Source: Escherichia coli
GTDB lineage: Bacteria > Pseudomonadota > Gammaproteobacteria > Enterobacterales > Enterobacteriaceae
Strand: one strand, 5' to 3'
Assembly: GCA_011600865.1 (NCBI GenBank)
Contig: GCA_011600865.1_4890.1
Length of the DNA stretch: 52,276 nt
The position numbers and the translations under genes are program-made. Position 1 is the first letter of the stretch; each line of letters begins with the position of its first letter. Positions 34,205 to 52,276 of the stretch are shown one piece after another. Under the pieces are notes generated by a model. It had not been told where the DNA came from and did no database searches. It worked only from the letters and a program-made list of their open reading frames with translations.

Positions 34205-37162
34205 CTACGGGCCTAAATCATAAATATCTGCTTTAGTCCCTTTGTTTTTGTACAGTAAGTATAACCCCAGCCCTCGTAATATTTCACCAGAGTAAAAGCC
34301 AAAGTACATGGCATTGCTTTCAGGTCCGCTACCAGTACTCAGGCGCAGAGCAGGTGACCAACCACCATCCATTACATGACCAGGAATACCTGTTATGTCG
34401 TAATGGTCTTCTAGCTCGTTGACAAGCATATCCATCAGCTTATCAAGGCCTGAAACTGTCGACCCACAAAGGGCTGACATAGATGCGCCTGCCAGCCATA
34501 AGCCACACATGTGACCAGTGAAGTCTGTCGGGTCTGGCAGAGCAACACCTTCTTGCGGGAAGTTAGTAGGCGATACACCACCTGACCTTTCCATAAAGTC
34601 CAGCAACCATCTCGACCAGTTATCCACGTAAGCGATAAGCTTACTAGGAACTGGCTTACCACGGTTTACTAACTCATACCAACCACGTGCTGCGGCGAAG
34701 TAAGCACGAGGCTGGTAACCTGACCATGCACTACCATTACCCCAGTGATACATAGTGAACGTGTCAGGTACACCGTACTTAAAGTTATCCCAACGGTTCC
34801 AGATATAAGCAGACGCACCAGGACCGAGCTGACCAAGCTTCTTAAAGTACCATTGCTGAGAATCGTATAAGAAGTCAACCATGTTGTTAAGCCTGGTCGT
34901 ACCAGCTGCAGTATCATCATGCGTAAATATAAACGGATACTGATAGCCAGGGTAAGGTAGACCATGCCAGCCGTCAAACTGCTGAGAGTCAGTGTTATAA
35001 ATGTTGGAGAACGGAATAACACCAGGCGTATATGCAAGGTTATCATTCTCATAGTCCAGCACAGTACAGTCACCTAGCTTAGCTGTGTACGGGTTATCAG
35101 CCGATAAAGTAAGACGGTACTTAATCGTATAACCAATCGGCCAGTTATAGCGAGGCGGAACGTCATTTACACAGTACCAGCTGATACTTGTCGGCGTATT
35201 AACACCATCGGGCAGTACAAGCGAGAACTGCTTAATCTCGCCGAATCGTGGGCTTGTAGGCGGTGTACCTGGGTTTTCCTGGTATGACGCCAGCCTGAAC
35301 TCGCTGGTGCGAATCTGCTGAGTTACCCATCCTGGTGCGGCAGGTAAGTCACGTACCCAACTCCAGCCCTGTGCGTCAGTTACTTTGATGAGCAACGGAC
35401 CTGTAGAAGTATACGTTAGCGAGTTTAAAGGTGCCTGGGAAGATTCCAGTAACCAAAAGCCTATAATAGCACCTGACGAACTATCCGGTATTGTCATACG
35501 AACAGTGTTGCCACGTCTGCCGTCAAGTATGTCAGTACGGTAAGACACCGCAATAGTGGCATTGCCATAATCAGTGGATGAACGAATATCAGCTAAGATA
35601 TACTCAGAACCGTCCGGCTTAGTACCTGCAACAAAGTCGCTTAACGGAATATCGTAGTTAGCAGGTGAAGCGCCAAGTGCAGGTAGCTGCGCGACAAAAC
35701 GATAGATGTTTTGCTCAACATCAACCTTTTCACGGTTCATGTACATTTCCACCTTGACACTGATGTTCTGACCAGCATCATCTTTGCCACCTACCTCTGT
35801 ACGTATCTTAGCTGTTGGCTTACACTTAAACCATACAGCCTGCTGCTCCAGAGATGATTGAGCTTTTTCGTTCTGACGTAGAACTATATAACCATTTTCA
35901 TCACGTGAATATATAGCTTGTGCCAGTTCAGGATAAGACCAATCATAAGAGATGCCATCAGTAAACGGAGACGACGCGTGAGTGTCTTGTCGGAAGAACT
36001 GGTCTTGTCTATCAATGTCAATATACTCCTCCAGTGTAAACAGGACAGCTTGCCAAGCGTTGTAATACTTTTGCTCGTTAGTAATTCGCCACAGCATATA
36101 GCAGCAGTCACAGAACCACAGCTCAGCATCAGCAGCATTACCGCGCTGAAGCTCGCCGTGCAGTGGAACGTTCACAGGTCTGTTGTGCCATACTTCATTT
36201 CGCTTGAGCAAATAACCACCGTGTTCAACAGGAAGCTTAACAGCATAGTTAAGCAGGTACACACCATTGACAGTATGGTCACGAAGCTGAATCTCACCTT
36301 TACGTGAACTGGGTAAACCAGTTTCCAGAATCTCACCACCCCATAGCTCGTCGTTCTTACCTGGCAGTACACCAATTCTGTTACCAGTCCATGCAACGAT
36401 ATATTCTATTAGCTGCAACGGAGGCTCAGGAGAAGACCAGTCAACTGTGTACGACGGTTTACCAAGATAGCGTGGCCAATCAATCCAGGCTAACTGATTC
36501 CATGGGTCAGCTGGCATGGTAGTGATGCGATAATTGTTGTAAATATCATCCCAGTTAACGTTATCTTTAATAACACGGACCCCACCGTTAATAGCAGGCC
36601 ATGCCATGTGTCCCCTGTGGGCCCAAGTAGCAACATCCAGGTACTCGCCCCAGAAAGGAGAACCATGAGGGATTTGTGCTTTGCCGTTAACAAATTTAAC
36701 TGGCACATTTTTATATCCACCCTGTGTTGGTGAATCAGGGTTGATCGGGAAGCTGGCTAGCACAGGCTCTTTGCCATTACAAAGCCAGTTAGCGATCCAG
36801 CGACGAGGAGTATCAGGGATTGGGTCACCTTCGTAATAGTATTCGACGTAAGCATTGAAGTACTCAATTGCTTTGTCCAGATACCGCTGTTCCTTAGTAG
36901 CAAGGTAGGCGTGAATTTCGCCGAGTATCAGCAGCGACTGACTTTCAGACGGAGCATCACCGTTAGGTTGGTACTCCATCATAGTGTGCGCAATAAAATG
37001 GCGGTTGTTCGACACTACTCCTTCTGGGTTGAAGATATAGTGCTGACGCGTAGCGTCGTCAGTTCTACCAGTATTGCGCTCAAGAAAGTGGTGGTGACCT
37101 TCGATAAGGCTTTCGACATTAGCTCGATGGTCTGATCCGTCTTTAAGCAACATCGTGTGCAT
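34205..37162 (-). CDS. Large virion-associated protein, possibly a carbohydrate-active enzyme (depolymerase-like)
   Basis: 985 aa and very rich in Trp/Tyr/Gly; the C-terminal third (WYFKKLG...YIWNRWDNFKYG...GHMCGLWLAGASMSALCG...YFGFYSGE) resembles alpha/alpha-barrel glycoside hydrolase or lyase folds. The ORF is secure; the function is speculative. Confidence 0.45.
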   Translation of the reverse strand: MHTMLLKDGSDHRANVESLIEGHHHFLERNTGRTDDATRQHYIFNPEGVVSNNRHFIAHTMMEYQPNGDAPSESQSLLILGEIHAYLATKEQRYLDKAIEYFNAYVEYYYEGDPIPDTPRRWIANWLCNGKEPVLASFPINPDSPTQGGYKNVPVKFVNGKAQIPHGSPFWGEYLDVATWAHRGHMAWPAINGGVRVIKDNVNWDDIYNNYRITTMPADPWNQLAWIDWPRYLGKPSYTVDWSSPEPPLQLIEYIVAWTGNRIGVLPGKNDELWGGEILETGLPSSRKGEIQLRDHTVNGVYLLNYAVKLPVEHGGYLLKRNEVWHNRPVNVPLHGELQRGNAADAELWFCDCCYMLWRITNEQKYYNAWQAVLFTLEEYIDIDRQDQFFRQDTHASSPFTDGISYDWSYPELAQAIYSRDENGYIVLRQNEKAQSSLEQQAVWFKCKPTAKIRTEVGGKDDAGQNISVKVEMYMNREKVDVEQNIYRFVAQLPALGASPANYDIPLSDFVAGTKPDGSEYILADIRSSTDYGNATIAVSYRTDILDGRRGNTVRMTIPDSSSGAIIGFWLLESSQAPLNSLTYTSTGPLLIKVTDAQGWSWVRDLPAAPGWVTQQIRTSEFRLASYQENPGTPPTSPRFGEIKQFSLVLPDGVNTPTSISWYCVNDVPPRYNWPIGYTIKYRLTLSADNPYTAKLGDCTVLDYENDNLAYTPGVIPFSNIYNTDSQQFDGWHGLPYPGYQYPFIFTHDDTAAGTTRLNNMVDFLYDSQQWYFKKLGQLGPGASAYIWNRWDNFKYGVPDTFTMYHWGNGSAWSGYQPRAYFAAARGWYELVNRGKPVPSKLIAYVDNWSRWLLDFMERSGGVSPTNFPQEGVALPDPTDFTGHMCGLWLAGASMSALCGSTVSGLDKLMDMLVNELEDHYDITGIPGHVMDGGWSPALRLSTGSGPESNAMYFGFYSGEILRGLGLYLLYKNKGTKADIYDLGP

Positions 37163-43141: not shown

Positions 43142-44590
43142 TTACCGTCCCATATTTATTTTGAGCTTGGTAGTATAACGGTTGATGCCACGCAACACCA
43201 TGTAACGACAATCATCGTATACGTGGTCTTCAGAGTTCGTGTCGACATCTTCCGTGTTGTTCTTGTCACGCGGCAGAACCGGCAACGTGTTTATGGCTGC
43301 TGGACAGTTTTCCATGAAATAAATGCCCGGCTTTTCCGTTTCGTCCATCTTAACATTTTTCAGAAGCTGACGGAATAGCTCTAAGCCATTTATTCTCGAA
43401 CCTTGTGACTTGTCGGCCTTGACCCAGGTTACGCCTTCGTCTTCCATTTTCTTCGCGATAGTCTCAACGTCTTTTTCCTTGCACGCATAAATTTGACTAT
43501 CAGCCGGACCAGGATTAACGTTGCTTTGAATCCAGCCACCAGCTTGCAGATTTTCCTGTAAGCGGAGAATGCCTTGAGCAACTTCGGCAGCAGAAAGTTT
43601 AATACCTCTGTTAGCTTCTTTTTCAGAGCACCCATACCATTCAGCTATACGTATAATGGAACCACGCGGAATAAAGTACTCATTGCCTTCGTCGTCTGTA
43701 AGCGAAGCGCCATTTGCAATAGCCCAGATACCAACAGAGAACGGGTGGGTAGAGCCCCAGTCAAGAGAGCGTTCAATGGTCCAACCTTTCGGAATACGCA
43801 TACGCGGCAGAATGCACTTGGTTGACCATACATCGTCGAGTGCACCACCTGCAACAATATCCCAGTCGCCTTCTTTCATCGCGGCAACAAGCGCCGGGTC
43901 ACCAAGACCTTCAAGACGGTCGCCGTAGTCAGGGTCGTTTTCCATCAACGTAGGGTTATCAGTCATCTTAGCTGGTATGTACTGACGCGCCATACCGCCT
44001 TCGCGTTTTTCCTGCTTAACTATTTTCATCGGAGGAGCAGCAGTTACGAAAGTACGCTTAACCCAGTTGTGACCAACACCGCCGGGGTTTGACCCACAAA
44101 AGATGAGTGGCAGTGGCCGGAAAAAGTTCTCAGGGACTTTGAGAGCACCGAGTCGGACACGGTTACGCAAGAAGCGGTACATCGTTTCTGTGAAGTGAGT
44201 AAGCTCATCCATCAGCAGAACGTGAATTTCCGCACCCTGGTAGGTATAAATATCTTTTTCGTACTGGAGGTGACAAAGCTTGATGTTCGCGCCGTTCCAG
44301 AATTTAATCGTGTTGCTCGAGTAGTTAATCTTGCACTTGCCAGCTTTGCACATACCATCCAGCAGAGCAGGATAACTTGTGGGACCAACCATGTGGTTAG
44401 CCGTAAGGTCGTTATAGTTTCGGCGGAAAAGGTAAATCTGCAAGTCAGGTATCATGCAGCACATGATAATCGACATTACACGCATAAGGTGAGACTTACC
44501 ACCACCAGCGGCACCACCGTACAGAATCTCAGTTGCCTGAGACTGTAGAGCTGCACCTTGTCTGTCATGCAGGTGAAAGTCAAGGTTCAT
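43142..44590 (-). CDS. Terminase large subunit
   Basis: Walker A YGGAAGGGKS near the N-terminus and a hydrophobic stretch ending in DE (VLLMDE, Walker B-like); 482 aa. Confidence 0.9.
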   Translation of the reverse strand: MNLDFHLHDRQGAALQSQATEILYGGAAGGGKSHLMRVMSIIMCCMIPDLQIYLFRRNYNDLTANHMVGPTSYPALLDGMCKAGKCKINYSSNTIKFWNGANIKLCHLQYEKDIYTYQGAEIHVLLMDELTHFTETMYRFLRNRVRLGALKVPENFFRPLPLIFCGSNPGGVGHNWVKRTFVTAAPPMKIVKQEKREGGMARQYIPAKMTDNPTLMENDPDYGDRLEGLGDPALVAAMKEGDWDIVAGGALDDVWSTKCILPRMRIPKGWTIERSLDWGSTHPFSVGIWAIANGASLTDDEGNEYFIPRGSIIRIAEWYGCSEKEANRGIKLSAAEVAQGILRLQENLQAGGWIQSNVNPGPADSQIYACKEKDVETIAKKMEDEGVTWVKADKSQGSRINGLELFRQLLKNVKMDETEKPGIYFMENCPAAINTLPVLPRDKNNTEDVDTNSEDHVYDDCRYMVLRGINRYTTKLKINMGR

Positions 44591-44593
44591 TTA

Positions 44594-44884
44594 TTACTCT
44601 TCCTCAGTAACGTCTACCACTTTCTGGTCACCGATTGTAATATTCAGGTTAACGCCGTTACCAGACAAGTTCTGGTCGATGTCAGCTTTAACAACGGATT
44701 CTTTCAGCTTAGGATACATGTACGGCATAACGCCCAGTGCACCATCCATCATCGCTTTGTAGTCGTCTTCACGTTCAGCAAGTATGATAGCTCGTTGCAT
44801 AACTTCCAACGGGTCCAGCTGGATACGTCGCATCGTGGCCAACAGCTCTTCTGTTGCCTCACGGGTTTTTTTCGGTTTTGCCAT
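44594..44884 (-). CDS. Putative terminase small subunit / DNA-binding protein
   Basis: 96 aa ORF immediately upstream of, and coupled to, the large terminase gene; the call is positional only. Confidence 0.35.
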   Translation of the reverse strand: MAKPKKTREATEELLATMRRIQLDPLEVMQRAIILAEREDDYKAMMDGALGVMPYMYPKLKESVVKADIDQNLSGNGVNLNITIGDQKVVDVTEEE

Positions 44885-45061: not shown

Positions 45062-45352
45062 TTAGGCCATTTCTACCAGAAACGGGAACCATTTACCTTC
45101 GAAGTAACCGCGCTCATCTACAAGAAAAGGCATTACATCTTTTCCGTATTTAATAACGTTCTCGTCGGCTATGGTTGTGATAGCGTTGTACAGGTGAGTG
45201 CACATCGGATGTTCGCTATGGCCTCCATAATATGCAATCTGCCCATTGTGGGTTACAGCAGGTTTGCCTGCTACGAATTCATCCCAGTTAAATGGCTTAG
45301 CTTCAGCCAAGCCATTTACTTCAGGATGTTCGACCATATCGAACAAGTCCAT
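45062..45352 (-). CDS. Hypothetical protein
   Basis: 96 aa ORF start-stop coupled to the upstream gene. Confidence 0.5.
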   Translation of the reverse strand: MDLFDMVEHPEVNGLAEAKPFNWDEFVAGKPAVTHNGQIAYYGGHSEHPMCTHLYNAITTIADENVIKYGKDVMPFLVDERGYFEGKWFPFLVEMA

Positions 45353-46547: not shown

Positions 46548-47218
46548 TTGTGTAAACTCCTGTACCGTTGTATCAGAACTTGTTTGTTATCAACATATTC
46601 ATCATTATATGTAAAGTCGCTATCAATGTACATCATTAATTTGTTACAATCCATTAAAATATCACTTGGACCTGAATGCTTAATTGTACTGATAAACATG
46701 TTGTCGATACGGAGCAAGTCTTTTGCATGTTCTTCAAGGGCCGAAAGTATCAATTCGGCACCACCTACAATCCAGACGTCAGTACCTCTGGATTCAAGGT
46801 CTGCTGCCATCTCACCCAAATTATTGTAGCCTTCTGAAGCCATAATCTGACGAGATACCGGCAGCAGTATTCTGTGGGCTGACATAGGCAGACTCATAGT
46901 CATATACGTGTTACGACCGGCTAACAATACACTATGCCCTACCATTTTTACCGTTACGTCTGCTATCATGTTTCGCAACTGGTCATTTGAGAACTGTCCA
47001 CGTAGTTGCTGATACGCATTATAGCCTGGTTCTGTCGCAATTGAATTAGTCATAGTCCTGAAAAAGAGCATGTCTGACGGACATTTCCAGGGGAGACCCG
47101 ATTTAGGAAGCGCACGGACCTCTTCCATGGTCTTGCACGAGTCCACCTGATGCTTCATGAACTCCGGGGACAACCCGAATTCCCCATTTTGGCCCATTGC
47201 AAAGATAATATTAATCAC
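46544..47218 (-). CDS. Dihydrofolate reductase-like protein
   Basis: N-terminal MINIIFAMGQNGEFG, a GLPW motif and a later IVGG motif resemble DHFR (compared from memory with T4 Frd), with insertions; 224 aa. Confidence 0.55.
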   Translation of the reverse strand: MINIIFAMGQNGEFGLSPEFMKHQVDSCKTMEEVRALPKSGLPWKCPSDMLFFRTMTNSIATEPGYNAYQQLRGQFSNDQLRNMIADVTVKMVGHSVLLAGRNTYMTMSLPMSAHRILLPVSRQIMASEGYNNLGEMAADLESRGTDVWIVGGAELILSALEEHAKDLLRIDNMFISTIKHSGPSDILMDCNKLMMYIDSDFTYNDEYVDNKQVLIQRYRSLHK

Positions 47219-47711
47219 CTAAAAAGTCCCCGTTGTCAGATAAAAGCGAATCCATAACGTCTTCAGACTGTGGTAGTATTACAGGATGATTGCCTGTTTC
47301 GATTTTTGGCTTATGTTTTGGCGCTTTTTTGCGCTCCAGGTACTCATCATGGGCCTTACAAATGGCATTTACGACGAAATCATGCTGATATGCGTACCAT
47401 TCGTCGTTTTCTGTGTCGTATTTAAGCCCTACATAGTTCATCAGCGACGACATTACGTGAATGCCTTCGTGGGAAATTGTGCTGTACTTAAGGTCGTCCG
47501 GGTGGTACAGTTCTACGACGATTAACAGGTACGGATAGTTAACGCGAGAGAACGTAAAAGTAGATGCATTACGCGTTTCCCGGTCATTCCAGTTGCCAAA
47601 ATCAGGCAAATCCATCAGTTTTTGAAGCTCTTCGTGCTCTTTTTCACTGCAAACGATAGCCAATTGAGGCGGATATGGCTCTAATTGAACAATTTTCATA
47701 ATGTTACCCAC
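47211..47711 (-). CDS. Hypothetical protein with an HExxH motif
   Basis: 166 aa; HEGIH could be a minimal zinc-hydrolase motif, but no other zincin features are evident. Confidence 0.45.
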   Translation of the reverse strand: MGNIMKIVQLEPYPPQLAIVCSEKEHEELQKLMDLPDFGNWNDRETRNASTFTFSRVNYPYLLIVVELYHPDDLKYSTISHEGIHVMSSLMNYVGLKYDTENDEWYAYQHDFVVNAICKAHDEYLERKKAPKHKPKIETGNHPVILPQSEDVMDSLLSDNGDFLGD

Positions 47712-47942
47712 AAGTAGGAGACCGTGAGGCCGTTTGATGATTCACATTAATGATAGCGCGTGGAGGAGAGAAAGTACACCACTTTTTAGTGAGTGTCTAC
47801 ACAATTTCCGAAAAATATAAAAAAATTTTAGAGGGGCCTCGTTTAGTATTGTGTTAAGCAAAAGGTTAGCTCCTGTCGTATCAATCTGATGATGATTGGT
47901 CCTGATAAGGAGAAAATAGAGAAAAAAATAAAAAATTTTGCT

Positions 47943-48184
47943 GGCTCCTGGCAGGTAGCACCCCTGCGAAATTACCCCCCGCCGCACCTATTTCGATTGA
48001 AATGATTACTCTGGTAACTATTGCGATTGATACAATTACCGGGTGAACTACTTCGGCCGTTATAGTACAAAGCGTCTATAATTCAGATTGAAATTATATT
48101 TTTATAAATAATTTCGCCGGCTCCGTTGAGTAGCACCCCTACGTTACTATAACCCCCGCCGACCATTTTGGATTGAGTAATTAC
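47943..48184. repeat. Two copies of an approximately 68 bp direct repeat in the large noncoding region
   Basis: Copy A 47943-48010 and copy B 48119-48184 share the blocks GGCTCC, GTAGCACCCCT, ACCCCCGCCG and GATTGA..ATTAC in the same order. Confidence 0.5.
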
Positions 48185-48240
48185 ATGTGAAACTATATCA
48201 ATTGCATATGAGAACCACTCTCAATCGCAAGTGATTATCA
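47993..48240. promoter_or_regulatory. Iteron-like array of GATTGA-N3-5-ATTA(C) motifs (candidate origin or operator sites)
   Basis: Direct copies starting at 47995, 48025, 48086 and 48171 and an inverted copy at 48222-48240, in AT-rich noncoding DNA between divergent gene blocks. Confidence 0.4.
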
Positions 48241-48251
48241 TTTCTAAAAAC

Positions 48252-48283
48252 TTGCATAAACTTACAAATAAAAGGTGTACAAT
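48252..48283 (+). promoter_or_regulatory. Candidate extended -10 promoter for the plus-strand early block
   Basis: AAGGTGTACAAT (TG + TACAAT at 48276-48283), related to the AGTGGTATAAT motif at the other plus-strand promoters; weak -35. Confidence 0.3.
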
Positions 48284-48547
48284 CAATAGGGATTGGACTA
48301 TTATATATTTATTGAATGTGATGACTGATTGACCAGTCAACTGGTCTGGAGGGTATTGGTATGGTTTAATTTGGGTAGGTAGTACTTAACCAGTCAACAG
48401 GTACATCTGGTAGATGTCAATGGTACCTTATGCTCTTTAACAATCTGGTGACATGTTTCTTGTTGATAGTAACACTAGTAATAGTTTCAACCAGTGACTA
48501 TTGGTAACAGTAGTCACAACTGGAAACTAATACAAGAGGTGACTATT

Positions 48548-48697
48548 ATGAAGGACAACTATACACTTTGGTATGATACCAATGAAGGGCTTTGGTGTGT
48601 CAATATCAATAATGGTCCAGTTCCAGACTTTGAGTCAATGGATGTGGAAGATTGTGTTGACTTTATCCAATCCCAAGTTGTTAAATATCAGGAGTAG
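48548..48697 (+). CDS. Hypothetical small acidic early protein
   Basis: ATG at 48548 with AGAGGTGA RBS; 49 aa. Confidence 0.5.
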   Translation: MKDNYTLWYDTNEGLWCVNINNGPVPDFESMDVEDCVDFIQSQVVKYQE

Positions 48698-48701
48698 TAA
48701 G

Positions 48702-48875
48702 ATGAAAGTTTTAGAATTGTCCCAAGAAGAACTGGAATTATTGGTTGACCAATTGGACACCACTTTATTTATGGAAAGTGACCTGTTGGAATATGACAGG
48801 GAGAGTGGAAGGGATGTCAAAGACCAGGAAGTGAGGGTCAAGTTACTCCAATCAATTCTGGATAAGTTGAAGTAA
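48702..48875 (+). CDS. Hypothetical small acidic helical protein (paralog family member)
   Basis: ATG at 48702 with AGGAG RBS; 57 aa; N-terminus MKVLELSQEELELLVDQL resembles the products of 49602-49760 and 50020-50193. Confidence 0.5.
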   Translation: MKVLELSQEELELLVDQLDTTLFMESDLLEYDRESGRDVKDQEVRVKLLQSILDKLK

Positions 48876-48879
48876 TTTC

Positions 48880-48915
48880 CAACAATGGGGACTTGGTAAA
48901 AGTCCTCATGATTGG
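48880..48915 (+). promoter_or_regulatory. Conserved intergenic hairpin element R1 (CAACAATG - 8 bp stem-loop - ATGATTG)
   Basis: CAACAATG at 48880-48887; stem 48887-48894 pairs with 48900-48907 (one G-U), loop ggtaa; followed by ATGATTGG at 48908. Confidence 0.5.
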
Positions 48916-48970
48916 ACTTACTTGTCAAGGATTGACACTTATCAAAAATTCTATCAATGAGGATACATCA

Positions 48971-49537
48971 ATGACTACTATCAACTATGTTTACCTGACT
49001 TCCGCCTTTTCTGTTGAGTCTGTAAAATCTGGTCTGACTACTGAAAGTCTTGGGACTATTGTAGTGCAGATGGATAGTCTTCAGTACTTTGCCAATAACC
49101 AAATCATTAAGATGATCAAGTCCCTTAATGATGAAAGTTCTGTAAGTGTCAAAGACTCAAAAGAAGTGCTGGTGAAAGCCCTGTTTGATGAGCTTAACCA
49201 ACTGGAAGTTGAAGAGGTCAAAGTTGTGGCATCAAGATCTTCCAATGGCGGTGCCCGGAAATCTTCATCTGGTCCATCAACAAAAGATACTTGTTATCTG
49301 GTGTTCAAAGATTACAACTTGATGGATAAAGAAGACTCAAAATTGGCACTTGTTGATGCCATGAAAGCCTGTGGGATGGAAGCGGATGACATCAAAGCCA
49401 AAAGAGTTATCCAGTCATATATGTCATACTACCGGAATGATGTAAAATCTGGTAAAGTGACTGAGGGCAAGTCAGTAACTGGTGAAAAACCTGAAACTGA
49501 AGAAAAACCTGAAACCCAAGAAACTACTGAAGAGTAA
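48971..49537 (+). CDS. Hypothetical protein with an acidic C-terminal tail
   Basis: ATG at 48971 with GAGGA RBS; 188 aa; C-terminus GEKPETEEKPETQETTEE. An in-frame ATG at 48908, right after hairpin R1, is an alternative start. Confidence 0.55.
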   Translation: MTTINYVYLTSAFSVESVKSGLTTESLGTIVVQMDSLQYFANNQIIKMIKSLNDESSVSVKDSKEVLVKALFDELNQLEVEEVKVVASRSSNGGARKSSSGPSTKDTCYLVFKDYNLMDKEDSKLALVDAMKACGMEADDIKAKRVIQSYMSYYRNDVKSGKVTEGKSVTGEKPETEEKPETQETTEE

Positions 49538-49544
49538 TTTTTGA

Positions 49545-49586
49545 GATGGCACTCAAGTAGTGCCATCAATTGAAATTATTCACAAT
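49545..49586 (+). promoter_or_regulatory. Intergenic hairpin element R4 (8 bp stem-loop followed by AATTGAAATTATTCACAA)
   Basis: Perfect stem atggcact / agtgccat (49545-49552 / 49558-49565), then the same 17-mer TTGAAATTATTCACAA that follows hairpin R3. Confidence 0.45.
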
Positions 49587-49601
49587 CAACAGGAGAGAAA
49601 C

Positions 49602-49760
49602 ATGCTTAAAATCAAACTGACCAAAGACCAGGCGATGGCTTTGCGGGATATGATGATCGAGTTAGAGAAGATGGGCACTTTTTCTGATAGTTCTCACGCT
49701 TCAACTCTTGACTATATTGTTGAAGCCATTGACGACAAATTTTCAGGTTCTGAGGAGTAA
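49602..49760 (+). CDS. Hypothetical small acidic helical protein (paralog family member)
   Basis: ATG at 49602 with AGGAGAG RBS; 52 aa; MLKIKLTKDQAMALRDMMIELE. Confidence 0.5.
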   Translation: MLKIKLTKDQAMALRDMMIELEKMGTFSDSSHASTLDYIVEAIDDKFSGSEE

Positions 49761-49765
49761 TCAAA

Positions 49766-50023
49766 ATGACTGATATTGAGATGAAAAAAGAACTGGACTT
49801 TTATGCCGAACAGTATTGGGCTGAATGGGATGAAGGTTCGCAGGAATTTGCGGAACTGGTGATAGATTCAGGAATTGATGAAGTGCGGGAACATTCCTAC
49901 ATCATCAACATGAATCTGGCGTCAATTATGGGAATAATCGCCAGCGAATTTTCTGATGGCGAGCGGGACCATGAAGACGTTGTAAGACTGGCAAAAGTTA
50001 TGGTTTGGGTGGATACATTATGA
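49766..50023 (+). CDS. Hypothetical acidic protein
   Basis: 85 aa; stop overlaps the next start in an ATGA arrangement. Confidence 0.5.
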   Translation: MTDIEMKKELDFYAEQYWAEWDEGSQEFAELVIDSGIDEVREHSYIINMNLASIMGIIASEFSDGERDHEDVVRLAKVMVWVDTL

Positions 50024-50193
50024 AAGACCTGAAATTGACTGAAGACGAATTGGCGCACCTGATTGAATTACTGGAATCAAATGCCCAAATCGTGAAAGAT
50101 CAAATATCTGACGCTGTTGGCGGTTCCAAAGAGTTTGACGACTTGATGGAAGACTTCAGGCTGACAATTCAGATCGCAACAAAGCTCGCATAG
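50020..50193 (+). CDS. Hypothetical small acidic helical protein (paralog family member)
   Basis: ATG at 50020 overlapping the upstream stop (ATGA); 57 aa; MKDLKLTEDELAHLIELLE. Confidence 0.5.
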   Translation: MKDLKLTEDELAHLIELLESNAQIVKDQISDAVGGSKEFDDLMEDFRLTIQIATKLA

Positions 50194-50196
50194 TTT

Positions 50197-50254
50197 CAAC
50201 AATGAACTATCCAAAATTGTGATAGTTCATGATTGAAATTATTCACAACAAGAG
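50197..50254 (+). promoter_or_regulatory. Conserved intergenic hairpin element R3 (CAACAATG - 8 bp stem-loop - ATGATTGAAATTATTCACAA)
   Basis: CAACAATG at 50197-50204; perfect stem gaactatc / gatagttc (50204-50211 / 50221-50228) with a 9 nt loop; same architecture as R1 and R2 but a different stem sequence. Confidence 0.5.
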
Positions 50255-50264
50255 AGAGAGAAAC

Positions 50265-50654
50265 ATGTACAGTGCAAAATGCGAAGATGGCACCTATACC
50301 GTATACTGTGATGGTGAAGTCCTCAAAGTTCTGCCAAACGCCTTCAAGTTTGAGCAATTCATGACGGTGTTGTGGGAGAACCAGGAGATTAGTCGGGAAG
50401 ACATTATTGACCTGATGAATCCTTTGATGGGGTACCATCCAATCCGCGAGTTTGACAGTCGTCCAACTTGGTATAAGCTGGAAGATGGTAAAGTCTGGGA
50501 ACAAGCCTGGGACAAATTTGAAGGTGGTTACGGCCACTGGACAGTTTATGTCGATGGCGATGATGCCCAACGTTACTGGGAGGCAATCAAAAATTGTGCG
50601 ACCCGGGACGTGACTGATCCGGAATATGACGAGTCAAAATTTGAGGTTAAGTGA
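50265..50654 (+). CDS. Hypothetical acidic protein
   Basis: ATG at 50265 with GAGAGAGAGA RBS; 129 aa. The ORF-track start at 50229 is the ATG right after hairpin R3 and would add a MIEIIHNKRERN leader. Confidence 0.55.
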   Translation: MYSAKCEDGTYTVYCDGEVLKVLPNAFKFEQFMTVLWENQEISREDIIDLMNPLMGYHPIREFDSRPTWYKLEDGKVWEQAWDKFEGGYGHWTVYVDGDDAQRYWEAIKNCATRDVTDPEYDESKFEVK

Positions 50655-50854
50655 TGCCGCTGGTCAAATTTACTACGGTAGACCTTGCCAATGGACTACC
50701 ACCCAAAGCTGAGCAAAAATTCTTGACAGTTGAGGAATGGAATGTCTGGTGCCAGTCAGCTCTAAAATCTGGGGCTAAACGCACAAATGGAGGAAAGGTG
50801 TTTACCCGCTTCAATAAAGAGTGTATAATAGTAGTACAGATAATGATTGAGTGA
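50654..50854 (+). CDS. Hypothetical small protein
   Basis: ATG at 50654 overlapping the upstream TGA (TGATG coupling); 66 aa, basic. Confidence 0.45.
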   Translation: MPLVKFTTVDLANGLPPKAEQKFLTVEEWNVWCQSALKSGAKRTNGGKVFTRFNKECIIVVQIMIE

Positions 50855-50856
50855 TT

Positions 50857-50892
50857 CAACAATGAGGATTTGCCAAAAGTCCTCATGATTGA
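50857..50892 (+). promoter_or_regulatory. Conserved intergenic hairpin element R2 (CAACAATG - 8 bp stem-loop - ATGATTGA)
   Basis: CAACAATG at 50857-50864; stem 50864-50871 pairs with 50877-50884 (one G-U), loop gccaa; followed by ATGATTGA at 50885. Confidence 0.5.
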
Positions 50893-51030
50893 ATTAACCC
50901 ACAAGTGGAGGCCTTATGTACCGCCGTAAACATGTTGTTGAGTATTCTGTTGTGAATCCTGCATATGCTGAAGGTCGGGCTATGAGGAAGCTGGTAGTGG
51001 TTTTTATGATAATTCTTATGGTATTGGCTT

Positions 51031-51276
51031 ATGTTTTCTAAGGATGACTTATATGACATTGCTCGACGTGTTAATCAACGCGATTTATCTGGTGTTACCG
51101 ATCTTTTTTCTGCCGGCACTTCTGACGATGCGGTATTACGCGAAGCGGAGCGGCGCCAAGCAGAAATACAAAGAACTGCAAGCTGCTGGAATTATCAACC
51201 CCCGAAAACTGTACCGTTAACCTGGGTTGACATGACAGTGTGGCTATTGAATAAACTTGGAATAAGGAGCAAATAA
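51031..51276 (+). CDS. Hypothetical protein
   Basis: 81 aa ORF with an ATG at 51031. Confidence 0.5.
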   Translation: MFSKDDLYDIARRVNQRDLSGVTDLFSAGTSDDAVLREAERRQAEIQRTASCWNYQPPKTVPLTWVDMTVWLLNKLGIRSK

Positions 51277-51455
51277 TGTTTAAATTCTTACAACGTAACC
51301 CTGTCAAAGGTGGCATGCAATACTGGGTGGACATCCATGGCGGTGAGTATATGATGATCGTCCGCGACGGTAAACCTGCTGAAAGCTCTTTCGCTAAAGG
51401 TTGCAACGTTTACAACCAATTGTTTGAGTTCCTGGTTGAAGGCGATTACTTGTGA
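51276..51455 (+). CDS. Hypothetical small protein (59 aa, below the ORF-track length cut-off)
   Basis: ATG at 51276 overlapping the upstream TAA (TAATG), strong RBS AAGGAG 7 nt upstream; reads MFKFLQRNPVKGGMQYWVDIHGGEYMMIVRDGKPAESSFAKGCNVYNQLFEFLVEGDYL. Confidence 0.5.
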   Translation: MFKFLQRNPVKGGMQYWVDIHGGEYMMIVRDGKPAESSFAKGCNVYNQLFEFLVEGDYL

Positions 51456-51637
51456 TTGGCTTAATCCTGGCAACATGCGTGGCTACTCATGATTGTAGTT
51501 ACAAAATTGTTGAATCCAAACCTGAATGGACTACCGTTGAACAATGTGCTACCGATAGTCCATACACCTTGCTAAATCTTGGTATTATCCCCGCCAAAAA
51601 TCAGCGTGTTATTTGTGACGAGCTGAAACAAGATTAA
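51452..51637 (+). CDS. Hypothetical small Cys-containing protein, possibly membrane or lipoprotein-like
   Basis: GTG start overlapping the upstream TGA; N-terminus MIGLILATCVATHDC is hydrophobic with a lipobox-like LATC; 61 aa. Confidence 0.4.
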   Translation: MIGLILATCVATHDCSYKIVESKPEWTTVEQCATDSPYTLLNLGIIPAKNQRVICDELKQD

Positions 51638-52065
51638 TTGACGTGATACTGAGTGCCGGGCGCAACGTAATAGTTGTAGACCCGGCAAAATTGTTCCCAT
51701 GTTAATTCTACTAGACCCACAAAGAGGCGATTCGATGCCTCGTTAAAAGTCGTGCCACTTGGAAAGCAGTCAATCACATCAGCCTTATTCATCACCACGG
51801 TAGGCTGTTTTCTTGGTAGTTCGTATATCAGTACCGGCATCTTGTTCTGAGCCTTTGCTGATGCCGCACACTGTCTCCACCATGTTCCGATAGACTTGGT
51901 ATTGTGCTTCTTCAGTTCAACACTGAAAAACGGCACACCCAACAAGTCATCCCCGCCATTAATAGACTGTTGAAGATTGCGCTCAACAGTTAATCCGAAC
52001 GAGCTATTGAACTTCTTAGCCATTTTGCGCTCAAAGTTCTGTCCTTTCTGCCTTATATTAACCAT
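51634..52065 (-). CDS. Putative PD-(D/E)XK-type nuclease (possible resolvase-like endonuclease)
   Basis: 143 aa; GGDDLLGVPFFSVELKK gives a D-x11-E-x-K arrangement; convergent with the plus-strand early genes. Confidence 0.4.
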   Translation of the reverse strand: MVNIRQKGQNFERKMAKKFNSSFGLTVERNLQQSINGGDDLLGVPFFSVELKKHNTKSIGTWWRQCAASAKAQNKMPVLIYELPRKQPTVVMNKADVIDCFPSGTTFNEASNRLFVGLVELTWEQFCRVYNYYVAPGTQYHVN

Positions 52066-52276
52066 TTATTCAGCCTCGTATACAATTCAAAGTTTTGGTA
52101 ATCAGCAACATTGATAAATATTGTAGCACATCTATTTTATAGTGTAAACGTCTACAGATTTATTTATCAATCCGGTTTTTTATTATTTTTCGCCGGCGTA
52201 AATTTTTTTCATCCGGTTCTGATATTAATAAAGAGATAAACCGGATCATACATATAGACGCCTCTAAGTAGCTGTT

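Follow-up and report, generated by a model that had tools for sequence, protein, structure and literature searches.

The largest intergenic gap of a Rosemountvirus genome as a predicted packaging terminus and early control region

The largest intergenic gap of a Rosemountvirus genome is best read, on its sequence and those of related phages, as a packaging terminus joined to an early control region. It very likely holds the inner boundary of a long terminal repeat (DTR), which would be one physical end of the packaged chromosome; the first of two repeat copies in the gap is predicted to form the first ~70 bp of that end, and we infer that the remaining 360 bp comprise an early-gene promoter and a structured 5' leader. 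A DTR or physical end in this gap is already known, having been published for three relatives (fHy-Eco03, AEV23, and S144), and what is added here is a modestly interesting detail, the anatomy of three related sites termed A, A', and B (Table 1). The papers on these three phages give only DTR lengths or approximate positions, and no description of a common core at both boundaries, of the composite site A', or of a 176-bp spacing was found in them.

Table 1. Features of the gap and of the predicted terminal repeat, in window coordinates (a caret marks the cut position)
Feature	Coordinates	Strand	Basis or remark
Leftward block: TAATGATAGCG, AAAGTACACCACTTTTTA, TGTCTA, A/T tract; unique region just outside the DTR	47748-47835	-	Invariant in 16 phages
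Site A core, AAAAATTTTGCT^GGC; predicted cut and physical end 47942^47943	47931-47945	+	Ends of relatives align exactly here
Terminal unit A (repeat copy 1): blocks GTAGCACCCCT, TTACCCCCCGCCG, GATTGA-N3-GATTAC; first ~70 bp of the predicted DTR	47943-48014	+	Conserved repeat
Predicted DTR, 4,252 bp; small early genes and a RusA/PDDEXK-like nuclease gene	47943-52194	+	Boundaries homologous to ends of relatives
Extra GATTGA-N4-ATTAC copy, in the spacer separating units A and A'	48025-48039	+	
Site A' left half: GTCTATA, AT-rich 33 nt, TTCGCC	48074-48118	+	45-nt spacing as in the site B left half
Site A' core, AATAATTTCGCC^GGC; cut-type core	48107-48121	+	Core pattern; no end there in three mapped relatives
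Terminal-type unit A' (repeat copy 2)	48119-48190	+	Similarity to unit A
Probable early promoter, TGTACA-N17-TATTAT	48276-48304	+	Promoter scan and conservation
Palindrome or hairpin GACCAGT-CA-ACTGGTC, with first ACCAGTCAAC	48331-48346	+	Fold weak, z = -1.7
Leader hairpin 2, AGGTAC...GTACCT	48399-48428	+	Two compensatory pairs (AU/GC, UA/CG)
Leader hairpin 3: lower stem, internal loop, 10-bp upper stem	48478-48533	+	-24.7 kcal/mol, z = -6.75; three compensatory pairs
Site B: GTCTACA-N33-TTCGCC and core GCC^GGC; predicted cut 52194^52195	52150-52197	+	Ends of relatives

The window, by which we mean the whole 52,276-nt stretch analyzed, is a BP63-like Rosemountvirus genome, and the gap region with its surrounding 22 kb is 94-98% identical to Salmonella and E. 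coli myophages, the Rosemountvirus relatives at this level of identity including SPLA12, emhyr, and vB_SalM_Sz. Loughboroughvirus members (ZCSE2, S144, and AEV23) are ~77% identical to the region. Farther relatives, namely Erwinia phage SOI901, Salmonella phages KE25 and SE1_KM, and E. coli phage fHy-Eco03, were recovered via a flanking protein at 34-40% identity (34% for fHy-Eco03); although this neighboring protein is so divergent, the noncoding DNA of the gap is 65-68% identical in the same distant phages. An 18-mer scan of IMG/VR gained one contig (L014), an unrelated chance match that was left out.

Described as the largest intergenic region in the initial annotation, the gap measures ~848 bp in the window, from a minus-strand gene (ATG at 47699) to the first plus-strand early gene (ATG at 48548), and its 820-bp homolog tops the genome of the annotated relative BP63, where the runner-up has 486 bp. 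Its AT-richness was borne out as well (36.7% G+C in 48001-49000 vs. ~46% genome-wide), and the two direct repeats of ~68 bp are real: 47943-48017 and 48119-48193 are 76% identical with gaps (z = 8.5 against shuffles), with the exact blocks GTAGCACCCCT (two exact matches in the window) and ACCCCCGCCG confined to the two copies. GATTGA motifs are locally enriched as claimed, with seven copies within 452 bp (47881-48332), where the density elsewhere in the window predicts ~0.33. The count of four direct and one inverted GATTGA/ATTAC copies did not hold; the strict pattern GATTGA-N2-5-ATTAC has three exact copies only (at 47995, 48025, and 48171; 0.12 expected), and 48086 and 48221 are looser variants. 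That earlier reading missed the A/T run and GC(C/T)GGC core preceding each repeat, and a third core at 52183-52197.

An 81-amino-acid open reading frame (ORF) on the minus strand (47742-47987) and smaller ORFs in the gap were rejected as conserved genes because the multi-phage alignment contains 7-, 19-, and 20-nt indels there; KE24, KE25, SE1_KM, and SPHG1 have small coding sequences annotated in this gap, probably spuriously. A tRNA scan found none, Rfam gave no match at the gathering score across the whole window or at E ≤ 1 in 47650-48600, and no intrinsic terminators were found in the gap.

The evidence for a packaging terminus comes from phages with determined chromosome ends: cores A and B align to the exact base with the ends of vB_SalM_Sz, fHy-Eco03, and AEV23, which represent three clades. 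The fHy-Eco03 record annotates a left terminal repeat of 3,699 bp, a length obtained with PhageTerm and backed by restriction digests in the corresponding paper, and its inner boundary falls within the homologous gap. In window orientation the two fHy-Eco03 boundaries read AAAAAATTTGCC^GGGGCTT (TTTGCC^GGGG) and CTTTTTGCGCC^GGCAAT (TTGCGCC^GGCA), and therefore the core is cut at an identical position, and faces the same way, at both boundaries. For vB_SalM_Sz, whose ends were taken from the sequence record and not from a paper, an exact 4,263-bp repeat is present at both ends, with ...TTCCGCT^GGCTCCTGGCAGG at A and ...TTTCGCC^AGCG at B, homologous to window positions 47942^47943 and 52194^52195. 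In AEV23, core A and core B are 3,915 bp apart, which reproduces to the base the PhageTerm-based DTR length published for that phage. In S144, restriction mapping puts one phage end in this same gap, with fragments that showed no cohesive-end behavior. These DTRs, together with the S144 end, agree with the window in their gap, their cut cores, and their repeat gene content, and the DTRs of relatives range from 3.7 to 4.3 kb and contain small early genes and a RusA/PDDEXK-like nuclease.

For the window phage, whose ends were transferred by homology from these relatives, we predict a DTR of 4,252 bp at both ends of a virion DNA of ~56.5 kb. This prediction was made because cores A and B are homologous to the determined ends and because the pattern (A/T)6-TTYGCYGGC has three perfect matches in the window, at 47931 (A), 48107 (A'), and 52183 (B); with up to one mismatch allowed, five matches were found vs. 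0.75 expected by chance. The window record itself contains one repeat copy only and is not arranged by its ends. A break in the PEA2-3 record, 11 nt before the site B cut, was also considered as end evidence; it is suggestive of a coverage break but inexact, and was therefore set aside.

Boundaries A and B have the same core in the same direction, GC(C/T)^GGC after an A/T run, and in the five phages compared they have nothing in common beyond it. Each resembles A' on one flank: 75 nt to the right of the cut are common to A and A' (z = 5.5-8.9 in five phages), and 60 nt to the left of the cut are common to A' and B (z = 3.7-4.9 in five phages). A' is a composite, its left flank like B and its right flank like A, and the motif GTCTAYA stands exactly 45 nt before the cut in the A' and B sites of the window and 44 nt before it at site B of SOI901. 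It follows from this pattern of half-site sharing that each true boundary keeps an element only on its DTR-internal, packaged side, while A' has both. A possible fourth site at 47834 (GTCTACA...GAGG^GGCC) was rejected; its left half is unlike A' or B (z ≤ 0.9), and its right half is marginal (z = 2.8-3.9).

Across the relatives, unit A was orthologous in seven phages by pairwise comparison and was also found in an uncultivated viral genome (UViG L031), and the distance from A to A' is 175-177 bp in eight phages, a metagenomic relative included. The repeat copies cluster by position (A with A, A' with A') and not by genome, which indicates an ancient duplication with retention of both copies; among distant phages, A' copies are 78-92% identical. 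Folding of the terminal units and of the site B left half, on either strand, gave no single-strand hairpins (z = -0.5 to +1.3), and because of this the terminal units most likely act as duplex protein-binding DNA. Just outside site B, 52195-52262 contains an inverted repeat (GGCGTAAATTTTTTTCATCCGGTT / AACCGGATCATACATATAGACGCC; 24 nt, 75% complementary), and copies of ATCCGG/CCGGAT flank the site B cut on both sides; such copies also occur in fHy-Eco03.

In the mechanism that we propose, terminase or an associated nuclease would cut concatemers at A and B. As recognition elements, A would have the ~70-nt unit on its right and B the GTCTAYA-N33 element on its left, in each case only on the packaged side; these would parallel cosB and cosQ, respectively, beside cosN in lambda. 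Site A', with both halves and at a fixed distance of ~176 bp from A, is most likely an auxiliary site, acting as duplex DNA, at which terminase (its small subunit) would assemble, and may be a high-affinity loading site. A' has the core and both halves, yet no end maps there in vB_SalM_Sz, fHy-Eco03, or AEV23; were a core and one half-site sufficient for cutting, A' should therefore be cut, and this counts against the model. A more specific version, tentative and in our view possible, is a "split cos," in which A' would be the ancestral full packaging site, itself uncut, with cutting delegated to the half-sites A and B 4.25 kb apart. If true, this division would be the source of the long terminal repeat, A' loading terminase and licensing cuts 176 bp away and at the distant site B, and it would supply a concrete sequence logic for the definition of both ends in long-DTR phages, which is poorly understood outside T7. 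It is highly improbable that A' is a functionless relic of an old chromosome-end duplication: such a relic would explain why no mapped end uses A', but not why its halves, core, and 175- to 177-bp distance have been kept though the flanking protein is only 34-40% identical, nor the close similarity among the A' copies of distant phages.

The terminase large subunit is encoded on the minus strand at 43145-44590, matching phrog_979 (1e-38) and phrog_2 (1e-24), with a weak Pfam Terminase_6N match below the cut-off. Comparison of the window genes with phrog and Pfam recognized no small terminase subunit; two 96-amino-acid ORFs, at 44597-44884 and 45065-45352, are candidates for one. The S144 paper places the terminase of this group near that of phage 9g. 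We also observed that the RusA-like resolvase gene within the DTR (51637-52065, minus strand; phrog_244), which matches the Pfam phage PDDEXK endonuclease family PF24608 (5e-18), is separated from the predicted cut at site B by 130 bp. Its protein is virion associated in fHy-Eco03, and a role in end formation is conceivable.

In lambda, cosQ, cosN, and cosB form one site, at which staggered nicks are made, and the chromosome has no terminal redundancy. The proposed sites are like lambda cos in that cutting would involve two distinct recognition elements, one needed on either side of the cut, and each packaged end keeps the packaged-side element; they are unlike it in having two cut sites 4.25 kb apart, a cut at the center of a GCC^GGC-type core that looks blunt, and a full site with left and right elements that lies uncut between them. 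The 3.7- to 4.3-kb redundancy of the relatives and the behavior of the S144 fragments also differ from those of a lambda-like cos. Terminal repeats carry pre-early or host-takeover genes in T5 and SPO1, and in T7 the ends are made from concatemers whose junctions contain one repeat copy each. As in T5, early genes lie inside the repeat, which makes up ~8% of the chromosome, but there is no homology to T5, SPO1, or T7, and the size is another. Twort-like phages (Kayvirus) have long terminal repeats bracketed by 12-bp inverted repeats (PMC7596081); their kilobase-scale DTRs and short conserved boundary sequences are similar to those here, whereas our core is direct, has differing flanks, and is present in a third, internal copy.

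With the core motif, sequence alone would suffice to predict true ends and the 4.25-kb repeat, a point that bears on annotation; the deposited Rosemountvirus and Loughboroughvirus records are mostly permuted and without the repeat. Moreover, A, A', and B would constitute a defined three-site substrate for studying how long-DTR phage terminases choose their cuts, and the early control region and hairpin family described below are relevant to the engineering of these therapeutic-candidate phages.

The initial annotation took the 68-bp repeats and GATTGA motifs for origin iterons or operators, a reading at odds with the exact start of copy 1 at the physical chromosome end of relatives. If the gap were a replication origin, the units and motifs would be iterons for a phage initiator, set in AT-rich DNA between divergent operons. 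The base composition of the gap agrees with this, as do the local repetition of short motifs (GATTGA is ~20-fold over background) and the strong conservation of the noncoding DNA, and replication near a genome end has precedent, since some linear-genome phages, T7 for example, start replication near an end. An origin does not, however, predict that units start exactly at mapped chromosome ends, and half of the element is found again 4.25 kb off, at the opposite DTR boundary. The GATTGA hexamer is not conserved beyond Rosemountvirus and Loughboroughvirus, DnaA boxes are neither enriched nor clustered in the gap, and no initiator gene is adjacent to it; an iteron origin would have several direct repeats of one length for an initiator, beside an AT-rich unwinding element and host-factor sites, and the gap has two long units only. 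The minimum of GC skew coincides with the switch in gene orientation and hence is not independent evidence. We consider it quite improbable that the repeats are explained by an origin; one could coexist with the DTR boundary in the same DNA.

A multi-operator switch, in which the units and the GATTGA/ATTAC motifs would bind an early repressor or activator of divergent promoters and their coincidence with the DTR would be secondary, is likewise unlikely. Divergent promoters are probably present in the gap, the paired GATTGA-N3-GATTAC motifs resemble dimer sites, and the fixed 176-bp spacing (~17 helical turns) is compatible with looping. However, the units do not overlap either element, being 130-330 bp upstream of the rightward promoter and 100-400 bp away from the leftward block; three phages are cut at their common core; site B, at which these operons have no promoter, has its own copy of the left half of A'; and no DNA-binding regulator was recognized among the neighboring genes. 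The broader suggestion of a control region between divergent transcription units is reasonable, with a conserved rightward sigma-70-like promoter and a leftward block both in the gap.

Beyond the packaging terminus, the rightward element is a probable sigma-70-like early promoter, backed by its conservation: among relatives, the -35 hexamer is invariant and the -10 hexamer is only TATTAT, TATAAT, or CATAAT. As a 9/12 consensus match it is, by count, at chance level (three found vs. 4.0 expected). The 237-nt leader that would follow folds better than shuffles (z = -3.7), and five compensatory pairs were observed over two of its hairpins. Hairpin 2, for which the fold energy alone is not significant, stands between two invariant sequences, CAGTCAACAG upstream, which contains the second ACCAGTCAAC motif, and GCTCTTTAACAAT downstream; at the position of the upstream palindrome, relatives have a different palindrome. 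Hairpin 3 is directly upstream of the ribosome-binding site (RBS; 48534-48539) and ATG of the first early gene. Three "ACCAGT" motifs had been listed here, two of which are exact ACCAGTCAAC copies (48332 and 48389, with one more elsewhere in the window at 36436); ACCAGTGAC at 48491, listed as the third, forms the 5' arm of hairpin 3 and does not repeat that site. The "ACCAGT..." motifs are arms of predicted RNA-type hairpins.

Hairpin 3 belongs to a family of four (48478-48533, 48878-48916, 50190-50242, and 50854-50894; z = -5.6 to -7.0), each built from a lower stem (UUCAAC.../...GAUUGAA), an internal loop, an upper stem of ~10 bp, and a 4- to 5-nt loop, and each placed in a short gap just upstream of a small early gene within the terminal repeat. 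The early mRNA of T7 has hairpins that are processed by RNase III, and the four hairpins look like T7-type processing sites in their lower stem, internal loop, and ~10-bp upper stem; no Rfam family matched. Two copies of the hairpin family were also observed in UViG L031.

On the other side of site A, the 240 bp to its left hold the leftward block, which is probably a promoter or operator of the operon that reaches the terminase gene; no consensus sigma-70 match was found in the block at the scan threshold. The gene left of the gap (47214-47699, minus strand) is labeled "putative Ku protein" in the S144 annotation, and its product was detected in fHy-Eco03 virions by mass spectrometry. The Ku-like label was not confirmed and appears doubtful: the gene has no Pfam match, and what is invariant among five divergent homologs is instead an HEGxH motif of the metalloprotease-like HExxH type.

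Several observations concern the records of relatives. In the 47-kb record of Salmonella phage SPHG1 (MW413353), ~250 bp are inverted relative to all other relatives, corresponding to window ~48141-48392 (the second half of unit A', the early promoter, and the first hairpin); this inversion is either real or a misassembly. The AEV23 record (OR810919) gives a total length that counts the DTR, yet it contains the repeat region once only. In its tail (54195-55305) are an IS5 transposase and a methyltransferase labeled "similar to Escherichia coli"; this stretch probably derives from the host or from the assembly. The DNA of fHy-Eco03 proved resistant to every tested restriction enzyme except one, and the authors of that work suspected that it has an unknown modification (PMC8145870). 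DHFR-like and thymidylate-kinase-like genes are present in the window, as are, by the BP63 annotation, genes for a thymidylate synthase and a dCMP deaminase.
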